From: a virus
Lineage: Duplodnaviria > Caudoviricetes
Strand: one strand, 5' to 3'
Length of the DNA stretch: 64,000 bases
Virus record (IMG/VR): IMGVR_UViG_3300005662_000021
Coordinates: 1 to 64,000 of that record
A model generated the notes under the pieces. That model saw nothing but the letters and a program-made list of their open reading frames with translations. It was not told the origin of the DNA and made no database searches. Position 1 is the stretch's first letter; each line of letters starts with the position of its first letter. The position numbers and the translations under genes are program-made. Shown here one piece after another: positions 13,279 to 56,382 of this stretch.

Positions 13279-13326
13279 TAAAAAAAAATGATTTAATTTG
13301 TATTAAAATACTATATTTATATAAAT

Positions 13327-37017: not shown

Positions 37018-37083
37018 TCAAAACCCTTGACAAACCAAAGTATTAATTATATACTTTCAAAACAAATTCAAAAACAGAATATT

Positions 37084-40445: not shown

Positions 40446-40568
40446 AGTCTTGTGGCGGAATGGTAGACGCAGCTGTGATAACTTCGCTGGAAGGTGAATC
40501 TCCTTTAAAATATTAGCAGGGTCAATCAGTTCTCAGTTATCGTATAGGTTCAAATCCTATCAAGACTA
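40446..40568 (+). ncRNA. tRNA-Leu-like shell S1 (anticodon arm replaced)
   Basis: AGTCTTG/CAAGACT-A, GCGGAATGGTAGACGC D arm, T arm TATAGG-TTCAAAT-CCTAT; insert with GATAACT/AGTTATC stem. Confidence 0.75.
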
Positions 40569-40640
40569 CAAAAAAAAATTTTAAATCTTGGAACTAAATG
40601 GTGAGAGAAGGGGTTTATGTAAATGAATTTAGAAACAATT

Positions 40641-40727
40641 GGAGGATAAAGTAATCAGGGTCGTTACCACCGCCTGCTAAGCGAGTGGCACCAAGTATGG
40701 TGTGGGGTTCGTGTCCTCTGTCCTCCG
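40641..40727 (+). tRNA. tRNA-Ser(GCU)
   Basis: GGAGGAT/GTCCTCC; loop CTGCTAA; long variable arm. Confidence 0.85.
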
Positions 40728-40743
40728 CAAAAAAATATTAATA

Positions 40744-40811
40744 AGATTAGAGCAGTTGAGTTCATAACTCAAAGGAATGCAGACAGTGGAGATGAGCGAC
40801 CCACCTAATCA
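40744..40811 (+). ncRNA. unclassified small structured RNA
   Basis: GATTAG/CTAATC closing stem with GAGTT/AACTC and GTGG/CCAC hairpins. Confidence 0.4.
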
Positions 40812-40842
40812 TTTTAAATGAATAAAAAAATATTCCAAAGTG

Positions 40843-40874
40843 TTTGGAAATTAGAAAATGAAATCGTAATTTTG
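40843..40874 (+). promoter_or_regulatory. Bacteroidota-type sigma70 promoter
   Basis: TTTG-N20-TAATTTTG directly upstream of shell S2. Confidence 0.75.
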
Positions 40875-40886
40875 TGATACAATAAT

Positions 40887-41034
40887 AGTCCTGTGGCGGA
40901 ATTGGTAGACGCTATTAAGATAACTAAGGCAGTATATTTTCTCGGAGTAAATATGCAAAGTCATAGTGTTGTACAGATTATCCGAGTGACGAGTACATGC
41001 TTAATTTTTACAGGTTCGAATCCTGTCAGGACTA
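40887..41034 (+). ncRNA. tRNA-Leu-like shell S2
   Basis: AGTCCTG/CAGGACT-A, D and T arms; insert has two hairpins with complementary loops CTCGGA/TCCGAG. Confidence 0.75.
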
Positions 41035-41247
41035 CAAAAAATTAAAAAATAAAAGTTATGGACACACATTATTGGGTAAGATTTGAGATTAGAATTGAAA
41101 CTATCAACAATCAATTAACTTCTGATGAACAAAAAGAAATCTTTGACTATATAAAATCAAGAATTGACGGTAGAGATGACATAGATAGACCTAAAAAGTT
41201 GGATTGTTGTTTTGTCAATATGAGGAAATTTTAGATAAGTTAAATCA

Positions 41248-41377
41248 AGTCCTGTGGCGAAAGCTAAGGGTAGAGTGAAGATTGAATGTTCAGACACTCC
41301 TTAATACTAGGATTGGAGCGAAAGGTCTAACATAAACAATATGTAGCTTAATACGGGTTCGAATCCTGTCAGGACTA
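41248..41377 (+). ncRNA. tRNA-Leu-like shell S3 (degenerate D arm)
   Basis: AGTCCTGTGGCG...TACGGGTTCGAATCCTGTCAGGACTA; AAGCTA/TAGCTT insert stem. Confidence 0.7.
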
Positions 41378-41404
41378 TTTTTTAAACTATAAAATTAAAA
41401 TATA

Positions 41405-41617
41405 ATGAACGCAAGAAAAGAAATACTTGGAAAAATAGAAGAGTTTGAAAAACGTGTGAAGTATTGGAAAGATAGACAAATAAATTTTAAATGGACAGAA
41501 GAAACTATAAAAGAGGGTGACCCATTATTTGTAATGTGTCAAGATTTTGAACATTCTTTTAAAGAAAAAATATTACTCTTGCAATGGGTATTAGATTTAA
41601 TTAAAGATGAAAATTAA
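41405..41617 (+). CDS. hypothetical protein
   Basis: 70 aa ORF. Confidence 0.55.
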   Translation: MNARKEILGKIEEFEKRVKYWKDRQINFKWTEETIKEGDPLFVMCQDFEHSFKEKILLLQWVLDLIKDEN

Positions 41618-41956
41618 AACAAACTAATATGATAAATAAAATTTCAGCACTTTTTGCACTTTTAATCGGTATAATGTATTTTTCTTTATTTGCATACGAT
41701 ATAGAATATGACCGAGATTTAATGACTTGGTTTTGGCTATTATTTTCCGAAATTTGGTTTATGATTAGTTTACGTTTTTGGATTTTATATGATAAAAATA
41801 ATTAAAAAATGTTAGTAATTATTGGTCTTTTATTTTTGATAATTGGAATCTTATTCTTAATTTTGTCTTACAAAACAAAGAACTCAGACTTGTTTATAGT
41901 TGGAATTATATTTCTAATTGTTCTTTTGTTTGGATTTATATATGGTTTAATAATAT

Positions 41957-42031
41957 AGAGTAGTAGCGCAATTGGTAGCGCACTCGGTTTGGGACCGAGA
42001 GATTTTGCAGGTTCGAGTCCTGTCTACTCTA
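41957..42031 (+). tRNA. tRNA-Pro(UGG)
   Basis: AGAGTAG/CTACTCT; CTCGG-TTTGGGA-CCGAG. Confidence 0.9.
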
Positions 42032-42039
42032 CAAGATTT

Positions 42040-42116
42040 AGGAAAGTATCCCCTCAGCCTTATACGCCGTAGAAAGGGTAACTGGTAACATATGGGTTCG
42101 AACCCCATCTTTCCTA
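42040..42116 (+). tRNA. non-canonical D-arm-less tRNA-like RNA, anticodon UAU (Ile)
   Basis: AGGAAAG/CTTTCCT-A acceptor; loop CTTATAC; T arm ATGGG-TTCGAAC-CCCAT; only 8 nt before anticodon stem. Confidence 0.65.
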
Positions 42117-42129
42117 CAAAATTATAATA

Positions 42130-42206
42130 CGGCAAGTATACCCTCCGTCTGATACACGGTAGAAAGGTTAATTGGTTACATATAGGTTCGATTCCTATCT
42201 TGCCGA
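42130..42206 (+). tRNA. non-canonical D-arm-less tRNA-like RNA, anticodon GAU (Ile)
   Basis: CGGCAAG/CTTGCCG-A; CCGT-CTGATAC-ACGG; T arm ATAGG-TTCGATT-CCTAT; paralog of 42040. Confidence 0.7.
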
Positions 42207-42215
42207 CAACAATAA

Positions 42216-42289
42216 GTCTCAGTAACTCAGTGGTTTAGAGTTCTCGACTGTTAATCGAGTGGTCGTAGGTTCGAATCCTACCTGGGACG
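42216..42289 (+). tRNA. tRNA-Asn(GUU)
   Basis: GTCTCAG/CTGGGAC; loop CTGTTAA. Confidence 0.92.
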
Positions 42290-42305
42290 CAAATTTTAAT
42301 AAATT

Positions 42306-42533
42306 ATGGTTAATGTAAAAATTGGTGAATTTAAGGTTGGTGATAAGTTGTTTATTGATTATAGTGAAGATAATCCAAACAATAAACACATCGAAATTAG
42401 AGCAATTGTGGATATGGAGGTGGTGATTTATTTGGATGACAAAAATAACTACCATATGGAACCAATTCATTACTTCAATGTGTTATGTAGATGTCACTCA
42501 CTTAAAAAAATAACAAATGAAACGGACAATTAG
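42306..42533 (+). CDS. hypothetical protein
   Basis: 75 aa ORF. Confidence 0.55.
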   Translation: MVNVKIGEFKVGDKLFIDYSEDNPNNKHIEIRAIVDMEVVIYLDDKNNYHMEPIHYFNVLCRCHSLKKITNETDN

Positions 42534-42672
42534 AAAACCAAGTTCTGCAAAGTTTTATGAAATGCTTAGAAATAAGTACAACAACTACATTAAGAAACAA
42601 GAAAATGAAATGGAAGATTCTACAAATTAGATTCCAACCTAAAAAATTTAATTAACAATATATAATTTTCAT

Positions 42673-43182
42673 ATGAAAAAAGAGTTTTTATTTAATGATA
42701 ACATTATTGATTTTGAATTTGACGAAGTAATAGATAAAAAAATAAATGTTAAGGTATTTCACTATTTCAATAATAATCTTTTATTTGAAAAAATTGATGA
42801 TAGAATAATTTGTCTTAAAGGTATTGGTAAATTATTCTTTCAAGAAGGATTCCCAATTTCATTATCTATTTCAAAATTAAAAGAACAAGGGGTTGAGGTT
42901 AGTATATTACACGTTGCTGATGAATGTTTAAAAAATGGGTGGTCACCAATCACAACATATAATAAATTAAAATCTGACTTTGAAGAAGATATTGACAAAG
43001 AAAATCATTATGATTTACATTTATTAAAAAAATTTTGTGAATCAAATTATGAAGACCAAAGAGAAATGATATTTGAATATCTGTTTAAATGCAAAACTGA
43101 TGATGTTAGAAATAAAAAAAATGAAAATCCAATAAATTGGTTACAATCACTTGTAACTAGTGGGGCTAAAAATAAACTTTAA
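42673..43182 (+). CDS. hypothetical protein
   Basis: 169 aa ORF. Confidence 0.65.
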   Translation: MKKEFLFNDNIIDFEFDEVIDKKINVKVFHYFNNNLLFEKIDDRIICLKGIGKLFFQEGFPISLSISKLKEQGVEVSILHVADECLKNGWSPITTYNKLKSDFEEDIDKENHYDLHLLKKFCESNYEDQREMIFEYLFKCKTDDVRNKKNENPINWLQSLVTSGAKNKL

Positions 43183-43191
43183 CAAGAAAAT

Positions 43192-43266
43192 GACCCTGTA
43201 GCTTAGCTGGTTTAAAGCACAATACTTTTAATATTGGGAGCGGGAGTTCGAATCTCCCCAGGGTCA
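43192..43266 (+). tRNA. tRNA-Lys(UUU)
   Basis: GACCCTG/CAGGGTC; CAATA-CTTTTAA-TATTG. Confidence 0.92.
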
Positions 43267-43275
43267 CAACACAAT

Positions 43276-43360
43276 GTCCTTATGGTGTAATGGTTAAACA
43301 TCCCACTCTTACAAAGTGGAGACGAGAAGTATAATCCTAGTTCGAATCTAGGTAAGGACA
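43276..43360 (+). tRNA. tRNA-Val(UAC) with enlarged variable region
   Basis: GTCCTTA/TAAGGAC; CCACT-CTTACAA-AGTGG; ~16-nt variable region. Confidence 0.85.
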
Positions 43361-43388
43361 CATTAAATGATTTTTAAAATATAAAAAA

Positions 43389-43637
43389 ATGAAAAAAATA
43401 TTATTTCTTGGTTTGATATCTGTATTATTCCTTAGTTGCAAAAGAGAAGCTAAAGAAGAAATAGAAACAGATAATACTAATTATAGTGTTGAACTTCTAT
43501 TTGAAGTTGATGGATGTAAAGTCTATCGATTTTTGGATGGTGAATTCCATTATTTCACAACTTGTAATGGTTCTGTAACTCATAAAAGTAATGAAAAAAA
43601 CTCCAAAGATTTGGAAATACAAACCGTTGTGAAATAA
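43389..43637 (+). CDS. lipoprotein (DUF4884-like)
   Basis: lipobox LFLSC; YSVELLFEVDGCKVYRF. Confidence 0.6.
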   Translation: MKKILFLGLISVLFLSCKREAKEEIETDNTNYSVELLFEVDGCKVYRFLDGEFHYFTTCNGSVTHKSNEKNSKDLEIQTVVK

Positions 43638-43643
43638 AGATTT

Positions 43644-43705
43644 GAACAATTAAGGGACCGAGCCTGCCTACAATTTCGGTGTGAGGTGCTAGTAGGTAAT
43701 TGTTC
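43644..43705 (+). ncRNA. candidate pseudoknotted small RNA
   Basis: GAACAATTA/TAATTGTTC; ACCGA/TCGGT hairpin; loop CCTAC complementary to 3' GTAGG. Confidence 0.45.
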
Positions 43706-43718
43706 TTTATGTTATAAT

Positions 43719-43852
43719 AGTACCACGAGGCATCCCATAAGAACTGCTCACTGCTGTGGTCTTGTTGCTTGTAAACGAATAGCCCAAGGTATAAGTTAGG
43801 AAGCTTAACTCAACCTATCCCCCACTGACGAGTGGGGTGAAGTTGGGGGATT
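43719..43852 (+). ncRNA. unclassified structured RNA
   Basis: ACCAC/GTGGT, AGTTA/TAACT, CCCCACT/AGTGGGG hairpins; GC-rich intergenic. Confidence 0.4.
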
Positions 43853-43868
43853 AAAAAAGAAACAATAG

Positions 43869-43954
43869 GGTCGGGTGGCCGAGTTGGTTAAGGCACTAGT
43901 CTGCAAAACTATCGAATGAAAAATTCATCGTGGGTTCAAATCCCTCCCCGACCT
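43869..43954 (+). tRNA. tRNA-Cys(GCA) with long variable arm
   Basis: GGTCGGG/CCCGACC-U73; loop CTGCAAA; GAAT/ATTC variable stem. Confidence 0.88.
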
Positions 43955-44015
43955 CAAAAAAAAAGTTCAGTTAGTTATTTTTACTCATTTTGTTGATATT
44001 TATATATATATATAT

Positions 44016-44765
44016 ATGAAATGGAATGATAACGATATTGAAAAATTAATTGATTTGGTTAATCAAGGATTAAAACCAAATAGTATTGCTGAAATTTTTG
44101 GGGTTACGTATAAAACGATAACTAATAAAATGTTTAGATTGGGTTTACAAGTAGTTTATACAACAAATAAAACTTGTAAAAATTGTGGAAATACATTTGA
44201 GTCTTATTTAAGTAAAAACAAATTATTTTGTAATTCATCTTGTTCAACAACGTTTAATAATAAAAAACGTAAACATAGTGAAGAAACTAAAAATAAAATA
44301 TCAAAAACATTAAAAAGTAAACCAACTAAACCAACTAAGCCTACTAAACCTAAAGTTGGTAAAATAAAAACTTGTAGGATTTGTAATAATAAAGTTATTG
44401 AAAAGTACAAAATTGTTTGTACTAATTGTAGGTTAGAGTATTATCAATATTATAGACCTTCTTGTACTTTTCAATTTAATGTAAAGGATTATCCACAAGA
44501 ATTTGATTTAATTTTAATTGAACAATATGGATGGTATTCTCCAACAAATAAAAAAAATAATTTGGTTGGAGTCACAAAAGACCATAAATATTCAGTGATG
44601 GAAGGTTATAGAAATAAAATAGACCCTAATATTTTATCTCATCCAGCAAATTGTGAATTACTTTTATTTTCGGATAATTCGTCTAAAAATGGTAAATCGT
44701 CTTTAACATTAACCGAATTGCTTGAAAATATTGAAATTTGGAATAAGAAATACGGAAATATTTAA
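44016..44765 (+). mobile_element. free-standing putative homing endonuclease gene
   Basis: N-terminal HTH, CxxC zinc ribbons, NUMOD3-like KHSEETKNKIS, DHKYS...HPANC; between tRNA-Cys and tRNA-Trp. Confidence 0.6.
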
Positions 44766-44793
44766 AAGTTATTATTATCTTTACAAAACATAT

Positions 44794-44868
44794 GGGAATG
44801 TAGCTCAATTGGATTAGAGTAGTGGATTCCAGACCCACAGGTTATAGGTTCGAGTCCTATCGTTCTCG
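44794..44868 (+). tRNA. tRNA-Trp(CCA)
   Basis: GGGAATG/CGTTCTC; loop TTCCAGA. Confidence 0.88.
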
Positions 44869-44899
44869 CAAATTTTATCAACAATTTAAAATACTTATT

Positions 44900-45211
44900 A
44901 TGGTAAGGGATTACATAATCGAAACATTAAAGAAAATCAAGGAACACGATGAGAAGGTGCACAAGTTGTATGATATGGGAGTTGATTTACTTGACTTTAA
45001 CAATACCACGTCCCAACTTGAGAAGTCTATTCCGACCATCCTCAGAAAAGAAAAAGACGAATCATACGGATGGATACAGGATTTAGTTGGTTGGTGGTTG
45101 TATGAAAATATTGAAAAAAAGATTTGGTATGATGAAATTGAAGTTAATGTTGAAAGTGTCGAAGATTTTACCGACTATTTATTAAAAGAGTACAGCTCTA
45201 TTAATGAATAA
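44900..45211 (+). CDS. hypothetical protein
   Basis: start reassigned to MVRDYIIE (upstream ORF part overlaps tRNA-Trp). Confidence 0.6.
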   Translation: MVRDYIIETLKKIKEHDEKVHKLYDMGVDLLDFNNTTSQLEKSIPTILRKEKDESYGWIQDLVGWWLYENIEKKIWYDEIEVNVESVEDFTDYLLKEYSSINE

Positions 45212-45222
45212 TCGTTTAAACT

Positions 45223-46560
45223 ATGAAAATTTTCTATTCAATTTTACTAATCTTTTTACCTTTTTTAATTTATTCCCAAGGTCTTATAATAAATGAAATA
45301 TCAAATGGTGATTCTGGAAACAGAGAATATTTTGAGTTAGTTGTTATTGGCTCGACTTCAAACCCTACAATAAGTGTAGACTTGGGTGGATGGATAATAG
45401 ATGATAATAATGGAGATTTTGAAGGTGTTTTAAGTGGGGTTGGTACAGCTCAAGGTCATATAAGAATTAAACCAGGATGTTTATCTAATGTAAAACCTGG
45501 GTCAATTATTTTAATTTATAATAGTGCTGATGTTAATCCCACTTTTGGGATAACTCCAGACCCATTAGATTTTGATGGTGATTGTGTTTATATTTTACCA
45601 ATAAGTGATTTGTGTTTGGATAATACATCAAATTTACCAACAACAACAAATCCATTGTATACTCCAGTTAGTTATACCGCAACAAGAATTTGGGATAGGA
45701 TTGGATTTAGAAATGATGGTGATGCCGCACAAGTTAGAAGTCCAAATGGTTTATTTTTTCACGGATTTTCATACGGGGATGTGTCAACCCCATTTCCCAC
45801 TTTTCCATTTGGTGGTTCATCTTTTAATATTATAACAGGGAGTGGATTACAAAGAAATTATTTTTTCAATAGTGGTAGTTTTGGAGCAAAAGTCAATTTC
45901 AGTAGAGGTGTTGCCCCAACAAATGAAACTCCAGGTCAACCAAATAATGATGCCAATAGATATTTTATAAATTCATTAAGAATTGGGACTTATAATTATT
46001 CAAACTTATTAGACCCAATTAATATTGGTTCATCAACAACATTGGTTGATTGTGGGACAATATTACCAATTGGTATAATTGAATTTAAGGGAACAAAAAT
46101 TAACGATAATGTCAATCTTCAATGGACGCTTGATAATGTCACAGAAGTCAATTATATTGAGTTGGAGAAGAGTTCAAATGGTTATGATTTCTATCCCATT
46201 TCTGAGATTTATCCTTATGATTTAACAATGAATTATATTGATGATTTGACTTACTCAGAAAATTATTATAGACTTAAAATTGTTGAATATAGTGGTGATA
46301 TAACTTATAGTAATATTATTAATATCTCAAATAAAATTAACGATGATGTATTAATATATCCCAATCCAACAAAAGATATATTGAATATAAAAACAATCAA
46401 AAATATTAATAGAATTTCACTATTTAATGAACTTGGGGTTGAATTTGTTATTGAGAATCCGACATCTCAAATTGATTTATCCTCATTGTCAAAAGGAATT
46501 TATATAGTTAAGATTAATATTGATGAGAATACAATTATTAAAAAAATAATATTAATTTAA
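45223..46560 (+). CDS. secreted protein with T9SS type A C-terminal sorting domain
   Basis: signal peptide; LIINE lamin-tail-like start; LPIGIIEFKG...YYRLK; IYPNPT...LSKGIYIVKI. Confidence 0.8.
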   Translation: MKIFYSILLIFLPFLIYSQGLIINEISNGDSGNREYFELVVIGSTSNPTISVDLGGWIIDDNNGDFEGVLSGVGTAQGHIRIKPGCLSNVKPGSIILIYNSADVNPTFGITPDPLDFDGDCVYILPISDLCLDNTSNLPTTTNPLYTPVSYTATRIWDRIGFRNDGDAAQVRSPNGLFFHGFSYGDVSTPFPTFPFGGSSFNIITGSGLQRNYFFNSGSFGAKVNFSRGVAPTNETPGQPNNDANRYFINSLRIGTYNYSNLLDPINIGSSTTLVDCGTILPIGIIEFKGTKINDNVNLQWTLDNVTEVNYIELEKSSNGYDFYPISEIYPYDLTMNYIDDLTYSENYYRLKIVEYSGDITYSNIINISNKINDDVLIYPNPTKDILNIKTIKNINRISLFNELGVEFVIENPTSQIDLSSLSKGIYIVKINIDENTIIKKIILI

Positions 46561-47202
46561 ATGGCTTATATTGAAGGTAATTTTTTCCCCTTAAAGGTAT
46601 ATGTTCGAAATGAATATCTATATCAAAATAAGAAGGGATTTGGTGAATTTACTGAGGGTGTTATAATATCAATTAGATGTTTACCAGGACAAGCGGCACT
46701 ATTCCAAGTATTATTTAATAATGGTGTTATGAGAGATAAACTTCCATCTCACGCATTATTAACTGAACCAAAATTACCTGATGTTGATTTACCATTCCAT
46801 TATCTTCAAATATGGAATTGTTTTTCATATAATTTCTCGGTACATCATTTAAGTTATGTCTATGATACCAGAGTTTCAGTCTTTATGAAAGATAAGAAAT
46901 GGTATGATGGAAGTTATTATGCCACAATAAATTGGGGTTCTAGTGATTTGAATAGTGATTTTACCTTGGCTGAAGACCCAATGGAACATAAGTCACACCA
47001 TATATTACTACTAGATAATGGCCAGATTGCCCTACAACCGAATAATAGGATAAGATGGTCAGAACCATCCTTTGTCACAAAATCTTTCCCTGAGAGACCT
47101 GATTATTTGGTTAATAAGGATTATTATAATTGTGAGGGTTATGATAAGTGGGCGACCGAGGATTCTGAGTATATGTTTTATGATACAAATGAAAATAAAT
47201 AA
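46561..47202 (+). CDS. conserved phage hypothetical protein
   Basis: YVRNEYLY, HKSHHILLLDNGQIALQPNNRI. Confidence 0.7.
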   Translation: MAYIEGNFFPLKVYVRNEYLYQNKKGFGEFTEGVIISIRCLPGQAALFQVLFNNGVMRDKLPSHALLTEPKLPDVDLPFHYLQIWNCFSYNFSVHHLSYVYDTRVSVFMKDKKWYDGSYYATINWGSSDLNSDFTLAEDPMEHKSHHILLLDNGQIALQPNNRIRWSEPSFVTKSFPERPDYLVNKDYYNCEGYDKWATEDSEYMFYDTNENK

Positions 47203-47211
47203 TTTTTAAAT

Positions 47212-47727
47212 ATGACACCAATGGTAATTGTAAATTTCTATAAACCCTATGATACAACTTGGGAACTACTCCAACTAATGGCATTGGATAAAATTGCCGA
47301 ACACGAAAAGGAAACAAGTGAAGTTGAATTTGGAGATGTATCCGTTCAACAACAATTTGATGATTATCGTGCAGCTTGTTTTCAAGGGTTAAAAACATTT
47401 ATAATGCAAGTTTTAAATGAATGGGGAACTGAAAACATCTTGGTGTTTAATGATAAATTCTATAAGAAATTTGAACATATGGAAATGGAGGGTAGATTAA
47501 AAACTTATACAACTCCCAATGTTTTCAAAACATCAAAAGAATTATTCAAATGTTTAAAGAAAGAAAAGTTTCAGTTAGAACCAGATGATTTTGATTTCAT
47601 TCACGAAACTTTTTCAAGTGCTGATGATGTTGTGTGTAATATATTCGCATTTGAATATGAATTAAAAGAAATTGATGATGATAAGGATTGGTTAGATGAG
47701 AACGGATTTGGTGATATTTTAGAATAA
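47212..47727 (+). CDS. hypothetical protein
   Basis: 171 aa ORF. Confidence 0.65.
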   Translation: MTPMVIVNFYKPYDTTWELLQLMALDKIAEHEKETSEVEFGDVSVQQQFDDYRAACFQGLKTFIMQVLNEWGTENILVFNDKFYKKFEHMEMEGRLKTYTTPNVFKTSKELFKCLKKEKFQLEPDDFDFIHETFSSADDVVCNIFAFEYELKEIDDDKDWLDENGFGDILE

Positions 47728-47742
47728 AAAAAAGATAATAAT

Positions 47743-47955
47743 ATGAAAACAATAGGCGTATTAGAAGCATTGAAAGATGAAACAATTAAAAAAGGAGATA
47801 AAATAATTATTGAACTTATTGTTGATGAAATAGATATTGAAAGTATGTACCCATTATCTGCATTTTGTTTTAATAAATATGATGAAATATCAAAAACTAA
47901 TTATTTTAAATTGTCATGGAGTACTAAAATAAAAATAAAAGACAATAATAGTTAA
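47743..47955 (+). CDS. hypothetical protein
   Basis: 70 aa ORF. Confidence 0.5.
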   Translation: MKTIGVLEALKDETIKKGDKIIIELIVDEIDIESMYPLSAFCFNKYDEISKTNYFKLSWSTKIKIKDNNS

Positions 47956-48028
47956 TTTTTTTTGTAACCAACTTGACCTTTTGTATTATATCGTTATATT
48001 TAATAAAAAAATAGTAAAAACTTCACAA

Positions 48029-48100
48029 ATGAAACACAATCTCTATATGGACTTAACGACTGGAGCTGAGGGTAGAAATCCTCGGATGGAGATGGTATAA
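48029..48100 (+). CDS. 23-aa leader peptide candidate
   Basis: MKHNLYMDLTTGAEGRNPRMEMV followed by a terminator. Confidence 0.4.
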   Translation: MKHNLYMDLTTGAEGRNPRMEMV

Positions 48101-48127
48101 TATAAGGTTTTAATTGTTAATAAAATC

Positions 48128-48164
48128 AAATCCATCTTCCTAAAAAAAAGATGGATTTTTTTTT
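48128..48164 (+). terminator. terminator/attenuator
   Basis: AAATCCATCTT...AAGATGGATTT plus T-run. Confidence 0.75.
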
Positions 48165-48173
48165 GTCACAGAG

Positions 48174-48204
48174 TTTGGGAATTAGAAATGGTTTTGTAAC
48201 TTTG
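48174..48204 (+). promoter_or_regulatory. Bacteroidota-type sigma70 promoter
   Basis: TTTG-N19-TAACTTTG. Confidence 0.7.
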
Positions 48205-48208
48205 TGGT

Positions 48209-48688
48209 ATGAGAAAACAAACACCATACATATCCTCTTCGGTCGCCATAAAAGGGATTAATGATTCAGGACTTGCAAAGTCTGAAACAAACGATTGTGT
48301 AGTTAGAGCTTTTGCTTCAGCTTTCAACGTGACTTATGATTTTGCTCACAAAAAGGTTGCTGAAATATTTGGAAGAAAAAACGGACAAGGAACTTATTGT
48401 TTTAGTTTGGTGATGAGGTCTTTGGAAAGTAAAGGAATTAGTGTTAATAGAAAAAAAATTAAAACAATAAGTAAAGATGTGAACCTTTCTTATTGGATTA
48501 AGGTTAAAGGTGTAAACACTTTGAGAAGTATGACAACTGCAAAGTTTTTGGAGGATTATCCCAAAGGAACTTACATAGTCACAGTCAAAGGTCACGCTTT
48601 TACAATTAAAGATGGGGTGGTGATTGGAAATCCTGATGATGCAACAAAGAGAAAAAAAACTATCTATGGAGCTTGGAAAATTGGATAA
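48209..48688 (+). CDS. conserved phage hypothetical protein
   Basis: NDCVVRAFASAF...KGHAFTIKDG. Confidence 0.7.
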   Translation: MRKQTPYISSSVAIKGINDSGLAKSETNDCVVRAFASAFNVTYDFAHKKVAEIFGRKNGQGTYCFSLVMRSLESKGISVNRKKIKTISKDVNLSYWIKVKGVNTLRSMTTAKFLEDYPKGTYIVTVKGHAFTIKDGVVIGNPDDATKRKKTIYGAWKIG

Positions 48689-48737
48689 GATTACCTACTT
48701 TTGTGATGTTCATTGAAATTGAGGGAAAAATATTAAA

Positions 48738-48811
48738 GGGCTATTGGTGTAGTGGTCGAACATGCCACCCTGTCACGGTGGAGAACAGGGGTTCAAATCC
48801 CCTATAGCTCG
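48738..48811 (+). tRNA. tRNA-Asp(GUC)
   Basis: GGGCTAT/ATAGCTC; CCACC-CTGTCAC-GGTGG. Confidence 0.92.
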
Positions 48812-48824
48812 CAATACTTTAATT

Positions 48825-48914
48825 AATCGGTTGGTGTAAGTGGAAATGAATACCACCTTGGGTAGCAACCTATTTTTAGAATGGGGGATGTAGGTTCGAA
48901 TCCTACACTGGTTA
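48825..48914 (+). ncRNA. tRNA-like RNA without a canonical anticodon loop
   Basis: AATCGGT/ACTGGTT acceptor, D-like arm, TGTAGG-TTCGAAT-CCTACA T arm. Confidence 0.6.
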
Positions 48915-49150
48915 AAAAAAGTTTTAAAAGTTGGAACTAAATGATATGAAGGTTGGTTTATAATAATGTAACTTAAAAAAATAGATTATGACAAACTTTA
49001 TGATAAATTTTATTATTCTTGCTATTTTTATAATGCTTTTGGGTTTTATTGGTAACTATATCATAAAAAAATATCCAGATTCTTGGGTAGCAAAATGGTG
49101 GGATGATATGACTGATATTGGTCATTGGTGGTAAATTAAAATAATATCTA

Positions 49151-49320
49151 TGTCACGAGATTAAGATGTGACTTACGTTCTAAGGAGTTTACTTATTGTC
49201 AATTAGGGCGGACGAAGGCAACATAAGTTATATTATGGTGACTTGATATTCACCATAACGAATACAAGATATCAAAAAGAGAAGTGGAGAATCACTTATT
49301 CAAAACTTCTCTTAATTTTT
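49151..49320 (+). ncRNA. unclassified multi-hairpin RNA
   Basis: GTCAC/GTGAC, ACTTAT/ATAAGT, TTATGGTGA/TCACCATAA (loop TTGATAT complementary to ATATCAA), AAGAGAAGT/ACTTCTCTT. Confidence 0.4.
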
Positions 49321-49404
49321 GCCTAGGTGGTGTAATGGTAGCCACGCAAGACTTAAAATCTTGTGACCAGTAAGGTCGTGCGGGTTCGAGTCCCGCCCTG
49401 GGTA
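49321..49404 (+). tRNA. tRNA-Leu(UAA)
   Basis: CAAGA-CTTAAAA-TCTTG; long variable arm. Confidence 0.92.
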
Positions 49405-49420
49405 CAAAAAAATAAAAAAC

Positions 49421-49609
49421 ATGATATATTTTAAAATTTACTTTACACTACTTCTTATCACAATCATAGTTGCTGGAGTTACTGGGTCGCTTATGAATAG
49501 CGATACTAAAAGAAGTGATTTATGGTTCAAGATTTCAAACACTTGTTGGATAGCAACATTAGTTATGGTTATTGCAGGCGTATTAACTTCTGTATGGATT
49601 CTACATTAG
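49421..49609 (+). CDS. small membrane protein
   Basis: two TM segments. Confidence 0.55.
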   Translation: MIYFKIYFTLLLITIIVAGVTGSLMNSDTKRSDLWFKISNTCWIATLVMVIAGVLTSVWILH

Positions 49610-49646
49610 AATCTTGTCGGGACTACAAAAAAAAGTTTAAAAAAGA

Positions 49647-49678
49647 TTTGGAATTAAGAAAATCAAATCGTAATTTTG
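49647..49678 (+). promoter_or_regulatory. Bacteroidota-type sigma70 promoter
   Basis: TTTG-N20-TAATTTTG directly upstream of shell S4. Confidence 0.75.
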
Positions 49679-49687
49679 TGAGACAAT

Positions 49688-49780
49688 AGTCTTGTGGCGG
49701 AATGGAAGACGCTCGCTTCAAGGTGCGGTTAGTCAACGAAATGTAAAGCTAACGTACAGGTTCGAATCCTGTCAGGACTA
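49688..49780 (+). ncRNA. tRNA-Leu-like shell S4 (possible Leu-CAA with 8-nt anticodon loop)
   Basis: AGTCTTG/CAGGACT-A; TCGC-TTCAAGGT-GCGG; GTTAGT/GCTAAC variable stem with 14-nt loop. Confidence 0.7.
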
Positions 49781-49784
49781 CAAA

Positions 49785-49888
49785 TGTGTTGTTCCTTTGA
49801 GAAAGGAAATATAAAGATGAGTGACATTACTTGAATTATGGAATAGTAACATAATCGTACACTACAACACAGAGGATTTCTCATCCTC
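49785..49888 (+). ncRNA. unclassified structured RNA
   Basis: TGTGTTGT/ACAACACA closing stem, TTCCTTT/AAAGGAA hairpin, then GAGGAT/ATCCTC hairpin. Confidence 0.4.
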
Positions 49889-49902
49889 AAATTTTTAAAA
49901 AC

Positions 49903-49975
49903 GCACCATTCGACAAGGGGTCTAAGTCACCTCCCTTTCACGGAGGAGTCACGGGTTCGAATCCCGTATGGTGTA
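49903..49975 (+). tRNA. tRNA-Glu(UUC)
   Basis: GCACCAT/ATGGTGT; CCTCC-CTTTCAC-GGAGG. Confidence 0.93.
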
Positions 49976-50027
49976 CAAATCTCAGAAGTAATTAATCTGG
50001 GGCTGAGAGGTTCGAAACTCACGGAAA

Positions 50028-50126
50028 TGATTATGGTGTAGGCGCACGGAAAGATAAAGTATGAGAATGGTAAGTACCCATTAAAGAAATTGACATCAGG
50101 ATTAAGGTTCGAATCCTTATTAATCA
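50028..50126 (+). ncRNA. tRNA-like RNA with insert in place of anticodon arm
   Basis: TGATTA/TAATCA, GTG/CAC D-like arm, TAAGG-TTCGAAT-CCTTA T arm. Confidence 0.5.
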
Positions 50127-50136
50127 ACAAACATTA

Positions 50137-50176
50137 TGTGTATAGGATTTTTGGGTTGTGTATAGGATTTTCGGGT
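50137..50176 (+). repeat. 20-bp tandem duplication
   Basis: TGTGTATAGGATTTT(T/C)GGGT x2 just before the HNH gene. Confidence 0.85.
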
Positions 50177-50197
50177 TTTTTGTGATATTTATATAAT

Positions 50198-50779
50198 ATG
50201 GAAGAATTAAATAGACATCAAAAAGCTGCATTGGTAAGTGGTATTAAGCGTAGACAGAAATCACTACAAGAATACTACGAAAATCCTAATATTTGTAGGT
50301 GTTGCAATAAACCAATTATGGTTGGTGAAAAACAAAAAGTTCGTGAGGTTAGAAGAAAAGTTTTTTGTGACCATAGTTGTTCTGCAACTTTTAATAATCA
50401 ACAAAGAGAAATTAAAGAACCGATTAAAAAAAATAAAGAACCAAGACCTAAAAAGGAAAATAAAGAATCTAAACCTAAAAAGGAAAAATTTGAATTTATT
50501 TTAGGTTTAACTAAAAAAGATTTGTTTGAAAAACACGAAATTTATTATAGATTTAGAGCAGTAATTAGGAAACATGCACATTATATTTTCAACAAACATC
50601 ATAAAGACCAAAAATGTAAGGTTTGTGGATATAATACTCACGTAGAAGTTTGTCATATAAAATCAGTTTCATCTTTCAGTGATGATACTCTAATAATTGA
50701 GATAAATTCTATAGATAATTTAGTTGGGTTATGCCCTAATCATCATTGGGAATTTGACAATGGTAAAATAAAATTATAA
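50198..50779 (+). mobile_element. free-standing HNH endonuclease gene
   Basis: CxxC ribbons; CKVCG...EVCHIK...NLVGLCPNHHWEFD. Confidence 0.8.
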
Positions 50780-50786
50780 CACATCA

Positions 50787-50872
50787 CGCAAGGTGGACGA
50801 GTGGTCAATGTCAGGGGTCTCATAAGCCTCTTCTGCGAAAGTGGAACTTCGGTTCGAATCCGAACTTTGCGT
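50787..50872 (+). tRNA. tRNA with CAU anticodon (Met or Ile2) and long variable arm
   Basis: CGCAAGG/CTTTGCG; GGGGT-CTCATAA-GCCTC; TTCTGC-GAAA-GTGGAA variable stem. Confidence 0.85.
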
Positions 50873-50885
50873 CAAATTATTAAAA

Positions 50886-50971
50886 GGGTGTCTATCCAAA
50901 TTGGTGAAGGAAGCTGTCTGTAAAACAGTTGCTATATGCTAAACTTGGGGGTTCGAATCCCTCGGCACCCA
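50886..50971 (+). tRNA. tRNA-Tyr(GUA)
   Basis: GGGTGTC/GGCACCC; loop CTGTAAA; long variable region. Confidence 0.9.
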
Positions 50972-50975
50972 CAAA

Positions 50976-51179
50976 AGAAATGAAACCTTACATAGGATGG
51001 ATTAGCACCATTGAAAGGGAACTTGGCTCTCATAGGGTCGCAACCTAAATCGAGAGTAATAATGACCCAAGTTGCTATGTAGGAGACCCTGCTCTACCGT
51101 GCACGGTATCAGGTGATGGGGAACAAACCATCATTAAACGTCTTGCCCATATAATGCTTATGGAAGGACTTTCATTTCT
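50976..51179 (+). ncRNA. unclassified ~200-nt multi-helix RNA
   Basis: AGAAATGAAA/TTTCATTTCT closing stem; ACATAG/CTATGT, AACTTGG/CCAAGTT, CTCTC/GAGAG, TACCGT/ACGGTA, TGATGG/CCATCA, CCATA/TATGG. Confidence 0.65.
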
Positions 51180-51184
51180 AATTT

Positions 51185-51259
51185 GCAGTAATAGCTCAAT
51201 GGTAGAGTTCTTGTCTTCCAAACAAGATGTTGCGAGTTCGAGTCTCGCTTACTGCTCCA
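51185..51259 (+). tRNA. tRNA-Gly(UCC)
   Basis: GCAGTAA/TTACTGC; loop CTTCCAA; encoded CCA. Confidence 0.93.
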
Positions 51260-51275
51260 AATTTAAAAATTCATT

Positions 51276-51488
51276 ATGAATCAGTCCGAATTTAGAAATC
51301 TTAGAACTGGGGATAAAATCCATATTAAGTCTCGTGATGGTTTATATACCTTCTTAAAAAAAGACTTTAGAACTGGTGAAATTCATATAACCTGTAAAAT
51401 ATGGCAATATGAAGAAAATCCGATAAGAGTAACAAGTTTTGATGATTTCAAATGTTTGGCTGGTGGTTTATGGAGAAAAATTATGTAA
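51276..51488 (+). CDS. hypothetical protein
   Basis: 70 aa ORF. Confidence 0.55.
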   Translation: MNQSEFRNLRTGDKIHIKSRDGLYTFLKKDFRTGEIHITCKIWQYEENPIRVTSFDDFKCLAGGLWRKIM

Positions 51489-51561
51489 TAGGAGAAAGTA
51501 AGTCGGTTGGTGTATAGCTTCCTTACGTCTAAAATTTAAGCACGATTACATAATACAAAAA

Positions 51562-51635
51562 GGGGGATTAGCTCAGCTGGCTAGAGCACTTGATTTGCAT
51601 TCAAGAGGTCATCGGTTCGACTCCGATATCCTCCA
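51562..51635 (+). tRNA. tRNA-Ala(UGC)
   Basis: GGGGGAT/ATCCTCC with G3-U70; loop TTTGCAT. Confidence 0.95.
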
Positions 51636-51667
51636 CTGAAAAATAAACATTGTTTTAAATTTAATTT

Positions 51668-52273
51668 ATGAAAAAATTTTTAGTATTTTTAGTGTTAGTA
51701 GTATTATTGACATCTTGGTCATATACACCCCCACGTAGGGTATTATTTATCGGTGATAGTTTAACCTGTGCAACTGGTGGGTGGCAAGACCAAGTTTCCA
51801 AACATTTTGGATATCAAAGGGTCAATTTATCTAAAGGTGGTGTTAGAACGGATTATATGAGGACAACCCTAAATGCTTGTTTTAAAAACGATTCAGCTTT
51901 TTCAAGTGTTTTTATCTATGGTGGATGTAATGATGCTTTCTCTTATGTAAATCTCCAAGGTGCGGTTAATAACATTCAAATGATGGTTGATAGTTGTAAT
52001 AGAAGAGGAATTGAACCAATTGTGATTGTGGGTTTTAATCCAGCTCAAGTAACAACAAAGACTGTGTATGATGCAGAAACAACCAAGAGATGTGTTGGAA
52101 GATACATTGAGTTTCAAAAGTTGATGGTTCACGAGAAAACTGGTTTAAAAAATTGTAAGATAATTCCAATGGACACTACAATGTTTTATAGTGATACTGG
52201 AGATGGAATTCATTTTGCTGCGAGTGGTCATAGAAAATTTGCTAATTGGGTTATAAATCATATGGAAAAATGA
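51668..52273 (+). CDS. SGNH/GDSL hydrolase, exported
   Basis: FIGDSLT, YGGCND, DGIHFAASGH; signal peptide. Confidence 0.85.
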   Translation: MKKFLVFLVLVVLLTSWSYTPPRRVLFIGDSLTCATGGWQDQVSKHFGYQRVNLSKGGVRTDYMRTTLNACFKNDSAFSSVFIYGGCNDAFSYVNLQGAVNNIQMMVDSCNRRGIEPIVIVGFNPAQVTTKTVYDAETTKRCVGRYIEFQKLMVHEKTGLKNCKIIPMDTTMFYSDTGDGIHFAASGHRKFANWVINHMEK

Positions 52274-52521
52274 AAAAAATATTTTGGTTTTCAATTTTAA
52301 TCACTATCTTTGTATCCTGTAACAAACACCCCACGATAGAACCTGGTGATATTGTTAAGAAGTGTGTAATTGATACGATGTATATTACAGAATCTCCATC
52401 CACAATTGAATTTGGTAAGAGATATAATTATAAAACCGATTGTGATGAATTGATAATGACAAGAAGAAGTGATGTGTATGAAATAGGGGATACAATAACC
52501 TACGTTTATAAAAGAAGATAA
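52270..52521 (+). CDS. lipoprotein
   Basis: lipobox IFVSC. Confidence 0.6.
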   Translation: MKKIFWFSILITIFVSCNKHPTIEPGDIVKKCVIDTMYITESPSTIEFGKRYNYKTDCDELIMTRRSDVYEIGDTITYVYKRR

Positions 52522-52527
52522 TTATTT

Positions 52528-52613
52528 GCCGTTTTCGCATAGTGGTTGATTGCACTGGATTTGTAACCCAGTTCCGTTAGGACACGTCAGTTCGAATCTG
52601 ACAAACGGCTCCA
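52528..52613 (+). tRNA. tRNA-Thr(UGU) with enlarged variable arm
   Basis: GCCGTTT/AAACGGC; loop TTTGTAA; TCC-GTTA-GGA variable stem; encoded CCA. Confidence 0.88.
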
Positions 52614-52617
52614 AAAA

Positions 52618-52830
52618 TCCCAATTGATGTAGATAGATTGGGTGGTCAGTAAGCCTAATTGCTCGTATTATGGTTAATATGTCACTATAACCAGGGTTGC
52701 CAAGACCAGATTGTTGGCAGTTTACACGAGATAGTCACTCGCATTTTCTACAAAAGGCAAAAAACACTAGTCCGTTTCTACAGGATGATGGGGCATTGAA
52801 AAAGTGTAGCTAACTTGGAAGATACCCCAA
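52618..52830 (+). ncRNA. unclassified ~210-nt structured RNA
   Basis: CCCAAT/ATTGGG, TGGTTA/TAACCA, TGCCAA/TTGGCA, CGAG/CTCG hairpins; loop TGTAGA complementary to two downstream TCTACA. Confidence 0.5.
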
Positions 52831-52918
52831 AATTTTTTAAAAAAAACATAGGAAAAAGTGAATAATTCAGGAAGAACAACTATCTTTGTCTTATTAATCA
52901 CTGAAACACATAATCACA

Positions 52919-53149
52919 ATGGCTAAAGAGAAAAAAACAATCCAAGTTGAGTTATTAAAAGAATTCGCAAACAACTATTTGGCTATTCCAATGGTTTCTA
53001 TCCAAGAAAAAATGGGCATTATCACAATGATTGAAAAGGTTCTACACGAATCTAATGCCTATAAAGGTTATATGTATTTAAAACTTGAAGAAAACAATAC
53101 CCCCCCAGCATTTGGTAGTGAGGGGTGGGCAACAAGAAAATATTTTTAA
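52919..53149 (+). CDS. hypothetical protein
   Basis: 76 aa ORF after TATCTTTG promoter element. Confidence 0.6.
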   Translation: MAKEKKTIQVELLKEFANNYLAIPMVSIQEKMGIITMIEKVLHESNAYKGYMYLKLEENNTPPAFGSEGWATRKYF

Positions 53150-53158
53150 TTTAAAACT

Positions 53159-53431
53159 TTGAATATTATGGCACTTATTTATGTAATCTTGGATAGTAAC
53201 GATAGAATTCCAATTCTAACTGCAAGTAGTATTGAAAAAGCTGAATTACTTTTGAATCAATATATGGGTGTTGAAGGTCCTATATTTGATGAAAGTGTTG
53301 AGTATATAGGTTTTGAACCATTTGATGACAGAGGTTATTATGAAATTTATGAAGGTGAATACAAATATAAGACAGAAGATGGTGAACAAAGATTCATAAG
53401 ATATTGTATGTCATTAGATAGTTTATATTAA
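53159..53431 (+). CDS. hypothetical protein
   Basis: 90 aa ORF. Confidence 0.55.
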   Translation: MNIMALIYVILDSNDRIPILTASSIEKAELLLNQYMGVEGPIFDESVEYIGFEPFDDRGYYEIYEGEYKYKTEDGEQRFIRYCMSLDSLY

Positions 53432-53436
53432 AATTT

Positions 53437-53582
53437 AGTCCTGTGGCGGAATGGAAGACGTTTGGGTGCAAATCCCATTAGCCCAAAGGGGGTTACAATA
53501 TATTGAGGTTCGATTCCTCTACTGGTACGGATGTGTCAGATTGGCGTTGTTGTAAATACAGGTTCGATTCCTGTCAGGACTA
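53437..53582 (+). ncRNA. tRNA-Leu-like shell S5 with a nested second T arm
   Basis: AGTCCTG/CAGGACT-A; TTTGGG/CCCAAA hairpin; TTACAATA/TGTTGTAA arm containing GAGG-TTCGATT-CCTC. Confidence 0.75.
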
Positions 53583-53590
53583 CAACATTT

Positions 53591-53674
53591 AAAACATCAA
53601 CTCGTAAAGAAAATGATGGCAAAGAGGTTCAGATAAAGGTAACGAGCTCCTACCTACCCTGAACAAGATGTTTT
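53591..53674 (+). ncRNA. candidate pseudoknotted small RNA
   Basis: AAAACATC/GATGTTTT, GTTCAG/CTGAAC, AGGTA/TACCT; loop ACGAG complementary to 5' CTCGT. Confidence 0.5.
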
Positions 53675-53683
53675 AATTAATAT

Positions 53684-53797
53684 GGTCAAGTGGCGGAATG
53701 GAAGACGCTAAGTAAGATGGTGTACGTTTGTCCCATAAGAAAGACCGATGCAACAGAAATGTGAAGGGTCGTATAGGTTCAAATCCTATCTTGACTA
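53684..53797 (+). ncRNA. tRNA-Leu-like shell S6
   Basis: GGTCAAG/CTTGACT-A; GCGGAATGGAAGACGC; TATAGG-TTCAAAT-CCTAT. Confidence 0.75.
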
Positions 53798-54010: not shown

Positions 54011-54098
54011 GCACCCATAGCTCAACTGGACAGAGCAACCGCCTTCTAAGCGGAAGGGTACCGAAAGGTCATTGTAGGTTCGAGTCCTACTGGGTGTA
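54011..54098 (+). tRNA. tRNA-Arg(UCU) with long variable arm
   Basis: GCACCCA/TGGGTGT; loop CTTCTAA; ACC-GAAA-GGT variable stem. Confidence 0.88.
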
Positions 54099-54164
54099 CT
54101 AAATTTTAATAGTAGCTATTGGTTTGAATTATTGATTTGTTTATATTTATAGTAAAATACTATT

Positions 54165-55959: not shown

Positions 55960-56382
55960 ATGAAATACAAAATATATTTGGATGATGAAAGAACTCCTAA
56001 TGATAAGGATTGGACTATTGTTAGAAATTATGGTCAATTCATCAAAAAGATTTCTGAAATTGGATTAGAAAATGTAGCAGTAATTTCATTTGACCATGAT
56101 TTGGGCGACACTGCGGTTGAAGAATATTACACAAACGTAATGAATAAAGGTATATTAGATTATGATAATATTGAAGAAAAAACTGGATATGATGCAGCTA
56201 AATGGTTGGTTGAACAATATATGGACAACATTACAAGTCCTTTCCCTCAAGTATATGTTCACTCAGCCAATCCTATTGGAGCTATTAATATTATTAATTA
56301 TGTTAATCGTTTCCTAAGACATATCGGTAAGAAACAAACCGCAAAATTAAAAGTAGAACCTTTCACCATTCAACATAAATAA
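55960..56382 (+). CDS. cyclic-phosphate processing receiver-domain protein
   Basis: IYLDDERTP, ISFDHDLG, TGYDAAKWL, VHSANPIG. Confidence 0.8.
   Translation: MKYKIYLDDERTPNDKDWTIVRNYGQFIKKISEIGLENVAVISFDHDLGDTAVEEYYTNVMNKGILDYDNIEEKTGYDAAKWLVEQYMDNITSPFPQVYVHSANPIGAINIINYVNRFLRHIGKKQTAKLKVEPFTIQHK

Follow-up and report, generated by a model that had tools for sequence, protein, structure and literature searches.

A family of tRNA-Leu-like RNA genes with type-specific middles in the tRNA island of an uncultured freshwater phage

The stretch of DNA considered here, called the window throughout, comprises 64,000 nucleotides (positions 1 to 64,000 of IMG/VR record IMGVR_UViG_3300005662_000021) and belongs to an uncultured freshwater phage that is present in lake and freshwater DNA runs. 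The window carries a tRNA island in which an initial annotation, made from the letters alone, had recognized six elements (S1 to S6) and described them as tRNA-Leu "shells", with acceptor, D and T arms kept around unrelated inserts (the middles) that replace the anticodon arm (Table 1). These elements belong to a very large, unannotated RNA family of uncultured phages. A custom finder that requires a T loop of the form TTCRANN, 5/5 T-stem pairs and 7/7 acceptor pairs gave back the identical six intervals, and the motifs attributed to the shells recur well above chance, the 5' motif being found 5 times against 0.11 expected and the 3' motif 8 times against 0.00 expected. No close relative of the window was found among 50,697 deposited phage records by megablast and blastn, and the shells were matched there by ordinary tRNAs only.

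Table 1. Positions of the six tRNA-like elements and of associated features in the window (ORF, open reading frame; T9SS, type IX secretion system)
Feature	Position	Strand	Description
S1, 123 nt	40446..40568	+	5 unpaired nt after the D arm, 8-bp helix closing a two-hairpin domain, U48, T arm
S2, 148 nt	40887..41034	+	Middle (97 nt) closed by ATTAAG/CTTAAT and joined to the T arm through a linker of 4-5 nt
S3, 130 nt	41248..41377	+	D arm replaced by a GCGAAAGC mini-hairpin, then one long interrupted arm
S4, 93 nt	49688..49780	+	Cloverleaf: 3-bp stem, 8-nt loop UUCAAGGU, 6-bp variable arm with 14-nt loop
S5, 146 nt	53437..53582	+	CAA-type hairpin (G33), variable arm, inner T arm with decayed acceptor 3' strand, spacer, outer T arm and acceptor
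S6, 114 nt	53684..53797	+	AUGG/CCAU 4-bp hairpin (12-nt loop), GACC/GGUC variable-arm-like arm
S2 promoter (candidate)	40843..40874	+	TTTG 40843-40846, 20 nt spacer, TAATTTTG 40867-40874
S4 promoter (candidate)	49647..49678	+	TTTG 49647-49650, 20 nt spacer, TAATTTTG 49671-49678
Orphan shell 3' remnant	49609..49626	+	T-loop end, T-stem 3' strand, acceptor 3' strand, then ACAAAAA; directly 3' of the stop codon of ORF 49421-49609
tRNA island	between 39 and 56 kb	all on one strand	24 ARAGORN calls; small ORFs and two HNH endonuclease genes interspersed
T9SS sorting-domain ORF, 445 aa	45223-46560		In the tRNA island; C-terminal Por_Secre_tail and weak lamin-tail domain
DUF2828/DUF7788 protein	37027-38487		2 kb upstream of the shells, before the island; PHROG "RNA-binding protein", TROVE-related, Ro-like
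cREC domain protein	55960-56382		Downstream of the island
HD protein	56385-56966		Directly after the cREC gene, downstream of the island
RNA ligase	59488-60498		Downstream of the island; PHA02142 OB fold

All six elements exhibit 7/7 acceptor pairs, 5/5 T-stem pairs, a canonical T arm and A73. The tRNA-Leu D arm (U8, A14, A15 and G18G19) and its Levitt partner U48 are found in S1, S2, S4, S5 and S6, with S3 as the exception, and a normal anticodon arm (5-bp stem, 7-nt loop, U33 and Leu anticodon) is found in none. The description of the insert as a replacement of the anticodon arm is exact for S1, S2 and S3, the only elements with a single long arm, but it does not hold for S4, S5 and S6, which keep a hairpin at the anticodon position plus a second hairpin that resembles a variable arm; the loop of the GACC/GGUC arm of S6 contains GAAAUGURAAG, which is common to S4. 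As the initial annotation had anticipated, ARAGORN made a normal tRNA call for none of the six, S4 being reported as "tRNA-???" with a 4-base anticodon and the inner part of S5 as Leu(caa). Against Rfam model RF00005 (gathering score 29 bits) S1, S4, S6 and S5 scored above threshold (41.4, 35.6, 33.6 and 32.5 bits respectively), S2 reached 20.7 bits over its 3' part only and S3 had no match; these scores derive from the shell and not from the middle. The proposal that the middles fold on their own was weakly backed by single-sequence z-scores (-1.0 to -2.7) and draws its support from covariation among homologues.

The same architecture was found in many other contigs. An exact scan of IMG/VR with a 22-nt 3' pattern gave at least 119 matching contigs. 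Among the matches listed there and in the genome search described next, 157 distinct members were collected, which measure 70-200 nt, have a 5' part of the Leu type and number as many as six on one contig; 36 of 168 matches to the 3' pattern in other loci had no 5' partner. When 185,579 species genomes were searched, the pattern occurred in 28 contigs, all but one of them phage-like contigs of metagenome-assembled genomes (MAGs) with further shells, and one unrelated Hymenobacter tRNA stood among the matches. Mimicry of a host tRNA-Leu was considered and rejected, the pattern matching no cultured bacterium's tRNA-Leu among these genomes. U48, the base preceding the T stem, is present in 141 of the 157 members, and the pair 3-70 is U-A in all 157. 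The borders between shell and middle are sharp, composition becoming random within 2-3 nt inside both, and across the whole family the middles are somewhat better folded than shuffled sequences (mean z -0.76, n=123). ARAGORN calls about 30 of the first 127 members, all of 97 nt or less, with arbitrary anticodons (Lys, Ile, Tyr, Pro, Gly, Ser, Cys, Glu and four-base). Searches of the literature yielded no account of a family built on a tRNA-Leu chassis.

Conservation and covariation of the inserts among orthologs had been named as a check, and the comparison proved informative for four of the six types: in phage contexts unrelated to one another the middles of S1, S3, S4 and S6 are nearly unchanged, while the substitutions in the acceptor, D and T stems are compensatory. 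Twelve contigs carry homologues of S4, in which columns 28-68, including the 8-nt loop and the 14-nt loop of the variable arm, show almost no variation; substitutions in the acceptor, D and variable stems leave the pairing intact (98.3% of cells paired), and six pairs are changed on both sides, a number reached by 0 of 500 shuffles and compared with 0-1 in slid controls. The DNA flanking the copy in locus L091 is unrelated to the window. Homologues of S3 (106 nt, in L134, L245 and L246) possess wholly different acceptor stems (AGTCAGG, GACCGGG and AACAGAG) around conserved inner helices AGUG/GCUU and AUUG/CAAU, and nine double-sided pair changes were counted among five sequences of this type, including six of the seven acceptor pairs and two T-stem pairs. 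In the S1 homologues (L248, L250 and L251) there are five such changes, two in the acceptor, two in the 8-bp helix of the long arm that closes the middle and one in the T stem. The middle of S6 differs at only 1-2 positions in its homologues (L144, L240, L243 and L237), and the copy in L243 has the acceptor TACCAGG/CCTGGTA with four double-sided pair changes and a different position 73 as well. Three further ortholog groups show one to four compensatory pairs each. S2 was found in close relatives only (L005/L256 and L248), with two substitutions in the middle and a D loop that is 3 nt shorter in L005, and S5 only in a 98% relative (L263). In the L005 ortholog of S2 (13322-13466) the two 6-nt loops CTCGGA and TCCGAG read CTCGGA and ACCGAG, leaving five complementary bases with no compensating change.

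These comparisons bear on the possibility that the elements are decaying tRNA-Leu pseudogenes that arose by duplication in a plastic tRNA island. Such an origin would fit the orphan 3' halves (49609-49626 and the 36 matches lacking a 5' partner), the fused copies exemplified by S5 and the lineage-specific occurrence of S2 and S5. It is contradicted for S1, S3, S4 and S6, types that persist in unrelated phage contexts; the perfect acceptor and T stems of all six elements, the compensatory stem changes and the conserved U48 and flanks leave it with next to no probability. The initial annotation had also set these RNAs apart from decayed tRNAs, and in this respect it is upheld, as stems covary and both flanks and tertiary bases are kept.

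For S4, and for S4 only, a decoding role can be envisaged, in which a tRNA with an expanded 8-nt anticodon loop would be charged with leucine and read quadruplets or promote +1 frameshifting. The cloverleaf with its 8-nt loop is conserved in the 12 contigs and ARAGORN assigns it a 4-base anticodon; on the other hand, the stem under the loop consists of three invariant pairs only, without a linker before the variable arm, and position 73 is G or C in three homologues. The arm, being 14 nt rather than 17, would also be too short for ribosomal geometry, so that decoding by S4 appears very improbable.

A different explanation is that the shell is the effector and the middle a tolerated spacer, anticodon-less tRNA-Leu cores serving as a decoy or sponge for a reader of the acceptor or elbow, for which leucyl-tRNA synthetase (LeuRS), RNase P, the CCA-adding enzyme, EF-Tu or a host toxin or nuclease attacking tRNA acceptor ends are candidates. 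The shell does keep the entire set of LeuRS determinants and occurs in several copies per genome; the middles lack a common motif, are very diverse in length and contain fusion relics, and nearby RNA-repair genes hint at a conflict over tRNA. A pure spacer, however, would be expected to drift or shrink, whereas the middles of S1, S3, S4 and S6, unpaired loops included, are far better conserved than the shell, whose acceptor and position 73 change freely. This explanation is regarded as rather unlikely.

The flanks of the shells were compared with those of the 330 ordinary tRNAs of the same phages (window and loci L001-L227). Shells have T at -1 in 80% of cases, A at -2 in 69% and C74 in 96%, followed by AAA, and the corresponding values for ordinary tRNAs are 63%, 63% and 99%, again followed by AAA. 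Nearly every tRNA gene in these phages continues after C74 with AAA and not with an encoded CCA, and the 3' trailer is conserved. Since the leader and trailer signature of the shells is that of ordinary tRNAs, the same maturation route can be argued for both, and the shells are probably matured by the tRNA machinery.

Regarding transcription, the consensus of the Bacteroidota sigma-A promoter is TTTG/TAnnTTTG. The initial annotation had given S2 and S4 promoters of their own, and Bacteroidota-type candidates with TTTG, a 20-nt spacer and TAATTTTG can indeed be read in the sequence, ending 12 and 9 nt upstream of S2 and S4 respectively; an upstream element of about 45 nt is common to both. Within the 25 nt upstream, 16 of 155 shells have a TAnnTTTG box compared with 10 of 524 ordinary tRNAs, an approximately 5-fold enrichment. 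These data are relevant to the idea that the shells are processing punctuation, at which RNase P and 3' nucleases would cut island transcripts into mRNAs and tRNAs without a decoding tRNA being added. The position of the shells between small ORFs and tRNAs on one strand, the flanks shared with true tRNAs and the lack of an obvious own promoter for 139 of the 155 shells are all in line with it. It leaves unexplained the dedicated candidate promoters directly before S2 and S4, the promoter enrichment over ordinary tRNAs and the invariance of middle loops across unrelated contexts, and it retains only a slim chance.

Three RNA-labelled runs contained small shares of the region, all in the form of contigs and hence silent on ends, strand and level; stretches that they leave uncovered carry no information. 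In one metatranscriptome run a 219-nt contig spans 53381-53599, and thus the whole of S5, with no gap or mismatch and unspliced. Apparent DNA "joints" across S2 proved to be other family members that align through their arms and were rejected as real joints. Splicing of the inserts, which was to be examined as well, found no support, there being no splice joints in the RNA runs, no ribozyme core or bulge-helix-bulge, no Rfam family other than tRNA in the window or in 14 related loci and no anticodon arm that could be rebuilt. The shells could in principle be intron-bearing tRNA-Leu genes whose insert is removed by self-splicing or by a phage nuclease and ligase, in view of the RNA ligase and end-healing genes after the island and of the Leu-like CAA loops remaining in the middles of S4 and S5. 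Nevertheless, no joining of exon ends in S1-S3 or S6 restores an anticodon arm with a 5-bp stem and a 7-nt loop, the inserts fall far below the length of a group I or II intron, the S5 contig of the RNA library is unspliced, and Leu(UAA) and Leu(UAG) tRNA genes are already present in the phage (ARAGORN). Intron removal is accordingly extremely unlikely.

The distribution of shells between genomes follows a cassette-like pattern. Of 139 clusters of middles 123 are singletons, and close relatives differ in the presence or absence of entire shells. One shell of L001 is missing from the window, with the junction inside a 29-nt T-arm/acceptor repeat (the 3' arm), and in a related phage from a DNA run the flanks of S4 are kept with a different middle between them. 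The same type bears different acceptors in different lineages (CTG/CAG or TTG here, AGG/CCT, as in AGTCAGG, elsewhere). As a type carries the acceptor variant of the genome in which it resides, shells appear to be homogenised within genomes while middles move between them. Additionally, T-arm-like hairpins occur inside 10 of 133 middles compared with 0.76 expected, and D-arm hexamers are enriched; together with the inner T arm of S5 and the orphan 3' halves, they indicate that new middles arise in part when neighbouring shells fuse. S5 has the appearance of a recent fusion of this kind.

Taken together, the six elements are probably genes for non-decoding, tRNA-shaped structured RNAs whose constant arms would act as a processing chassis and as recombination junctions. 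The core of the family is that of a class II tRNA-Leu (7-bp acceptor, U8, D arm with A14, A15 and G18G19, U48, T arm whose loop is TTCGAAT and, in most cases, A73), in which a folded module of 17-130 nt, specific to each type, takes the place of positions 27-47, where the anticodon and variable arms normally lie. The genes would be transcribed within the phage tRNA island, some of them from their own promoters, RNase P would cut at +1, and the 3' end would be trimmed and completed to CCA as in the neighbouring tRNAs. The mature products would then be stable L-shaped RNAs that display the module at the site of the anticodon arm. The specific action may lie in the module, which would bind a protein or an RNA, and the shell may provide for processing, for stability and possibly for leucylation. 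The constant arms of 26 nt could serve as homology junctions for the gain, loss, fusion and exchange of modules between phages, with the shell sequence being homogenised within a genome. The Ro-like DUF2828 protein and the RNA-repair set (cREC-HD and RNA ligase) bracket the island, and this context hints at a phage-host conflict over tRNA and translation as the most likely arena.

The core of the initial proposal, a tRNA chassis carrying diverse payloads, is therefore supported by the size of the family, the tRNA-like flanks and the near-invariant inserts within covarying shells in four of the six types; A73 is not strictly kept in every lineage, and three of the six elements keep a hairpin at the anticodon position. 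That the shell is a processing and stability chassis can be inferred with good support. Regarding charging, the determinants of E. coli LeuRS are A73, A15-U48, G18G19 and contacts of the D loop with the T loop, and neither the anticodon arm nor the variable arm is needed (PMC9976931). The constant part of the shells equals this set, and the shells may possibly be leucylated. Most LeuRS determinants are also general needs of any L-shaped tRNA core.

Several observations weigh against this interpretation. The apparent constancy of the shell sequence is largely an ascertainment effect of the exact scan pattern; A73 is present in 40 and U48 in 43 of 46 members that were not selected through it. 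Position 73 varies (A, G, C and T) in the S4 and S6 types, and since A73 is not strictly kept in these or in some other lineages, leucylation as a universal requirement is weakened. The middles of S2 and S5, seen in close relatives only, are without independent support, and the folding scores of single sequences are weak. Relic T arms and D-arm fragments mean that some middle sequence comes from neutral fusion events. The RNA-library contigs cover the region thinly and, as they may stem from DNA carry-over, the unspliced S5 contig is weak evidence. Finally, the middles have no common motif and the Ro-binding motif of YrlA RNAs is not enriched among them, so that no common partner can be named.

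Searches for such a partner gave the following results. Antisense matches to the six middles within the window did not exceed chance (at most 12-15 nt, E above 0.01), and a search for captured fragments in about 2 Mb of related phage DNA matched them to nothing except other shells. No Rfam family was detected in the middles of the window at E up to 5, nor in those of 14 shell-rich loci at gathering score, and no 6-mer or Yrl motif stood out in the middles apart from relics of D and T arms. No co-occurring protein emerged among 116 loci either, the commonest ORF cluster near shells, a terminase, being found in just 12 of them. A more far-reaching version of the preferred interpretation is possible but speculative: the shells would form a natural plug-in RNA system, in which a leucine-accepting chassis, matured and charged by the host, shows dozens of interchangeable modules, each of which would disable or commandeer a host factor of its own, such as a defence nuclease or toxin that targets tRNA, a modification enzyme or a sensor associated with the ribosome. 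The modules would be traded through recombination in the constant arms, and the system would constitute an RNA counterpart of integron cassettes.

Among known RNAs, the closest published analogue of the shells is the species 1 RNA of phage T4 (rnaC, 139 nt), which lies with species 2 RNA (rnaD) in the T4 tRNA cluster and whose function, like that of rnaD, is unknown after 50 years (PMC3014915, PMC9697503). rnaC and rnaD are small stable RNAs, as the shells would be, and like the shells they are encoded in a phage tRNA cluster beside a homing endonuclease gene. rnaC shares with the shells a canonical T arm (CCGGG UUCGAAU CCCGG) and an acceptor-like 3' strand that pairs with the 5' end, and it carries two long hairpins at the D/anticodon region, as the shells have hairpins between their arms. 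On the other hand, there is no sequence similarity, rnaC lacks the tRNA-Leu D arm, its acceptor has two U-U mismatches, and it is a single gene whereas the shells form a family of multiple types with a constant chassis.

The Y RNAs of the YrlA type, which occur in bacteria and phages and partner Ro60/TROVE proteins, resemble the shells in being non-coding and in their tRNA-like D, T and acceptor elements with a Levitt pair. Their genes lie near that of a Ro-like protein; in the window the gene for the TROVE-related DUF2828 protein is located 2 kb upstream. Some of these Y RNAs are cut by RNase P and given CCA, and they are circularly permuted, a loop closing the acceptor and the 5' and 3' ends forming the Ro-binding helix at the anticodon position (PMC4201824). 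Unlike YrlA, the shells are not permuted and their RNA ends form the acceptor stem. An identity with YrlA was rejected, as the motif GNCGAAN0-1G occurs in 5 of 133 middles compared with 3.5 expected by shuffling and the topology is also wrong.

Transfer-messenger RNA (tmRNA) likewise keeps acceptor and T arms for processing and for charging by a synthetase that ignores the anticodon, and its anticodon arm is replaced by other RNA. It differs in that its identity is that of alanine (G3-U70), its D loop is reduced and it contains pseudoknots and a reading frame for the tag, whereas in the shells the pair is U3-A70, the D arm is full and no reading frame is common to them. An identity with tmRNA was rejected on account of the U-A pair 3-70 throughout the family, and the Rfam tmRNA model matches only a separate gene in L158. 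That gene (553-939, minus strand) is a true phage tmRNA (68.8 bits) located directly beside three shell 3' ends.

Laboratory constructs provide two further parallels. A minimal E. coli tRNA-Leu without anticodon and variable arms still accepts leucine provided that A73 is retained and the contacts of the D and T loops are undisturbed (PMC9976931), and in engineered tRNA scaffolds, a technology named in PMC3401473, foreign RNA placed at the anticodon arm gains processing and stability. In contrast to these constructs, the shells are natural, multi-copy and evolving.

If the preferred interpretation is correct, phage tRNA islands encode, besides spare tRNAs, a large hidden repertoire of tRNA-scaffolded RNAs, which tRNA finders either miss or endow with arbitrary anticodons, so that tRNA counts in phages would be inflated and distorted. 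The shells would be a natural precedent for the engineered tRNA scaffold and a possible route to the puzzle of the T4 species 1 and 2 RNAs. They would offer many independent, compact, evolution-tested RNA modules with which partners could be fished out, and the design of constant arms and variable middle would be a new example of cassette evolution at the level of the RNA gene. To the initial observation the present analysis adds the conservation of each type within covarying shells, the flank signature and the homogenisation of shells within genomes.

With respect to the remainder of the locus, the T9SS sorting domain encoded in the island and the labels of the shell-bearing MAG contigs (Chitinophagia, Flavobacterium, Sediminibacterium and Saprospirales) indicate a Bacteroidota host. 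The genes for the DUF2828 protein, the cREC-HD pair and the RNA ligase look like an RNA-repair set placed on both sides of the tRNA island. In comparative genomics such a gene set has been interpreted as RNA repair that counters a host attack on tRNA (PMC7824862). Shells are present in 9 of 80 loci retrieved through the DUF2828 protein; DUF2828 is found in 0 of 5 shell-rich contigs, which are themselves fragments (15-34% complete) and hence uninformative. The phage additionally encodes a full-length Hsp70/DnaK at 22438-24306 (Pfam HSP70, E 3.6e-256), and within the tRNA island positions 51078-51139 match the Rfam freshwater-1 RNA motif (RF02979) with 68.7 bits, slightly below the gathering score of 72.

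The island harbors other unusual tRNA-like genes. Two adjacent genes of 77 nt each (42040-42116 and 42130-42206) possess perfect acceptor and T arms and Ile-type anticodon loops (CUUAUAC and CUGAUAC) but lack a D arm at its normal position; what resembles a D loop (TAACTGGTAAC and TAATTGGTTAC respectively) follows the anticodon hairpin instead. They were missed by ARAGORN, score 28.6 and 31.1 bits in Rfam and have an 84% match in the 462-kb uncultured phage LR756500.1. The tRNAs for Val, Cys, Met, Thr and Arg normally have no long variable arm. In the ARAGORN structures, tRNA-Val (43276-43361), Cys (43869-43955), Met (50787-50873), Thr (52528-52613) and Arg(UCU) (54011-54099) of the window, ordinary in other respects, are 86-89 nt long and show long, class II-like variable arms. 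Finally, the 92-nt call "tRNA-Gln(ttg)" at 48824-48915, in which the anticodon stem is poor and a long extra arm is present, probably represents a further tRNA-like gene of non-canonical form.

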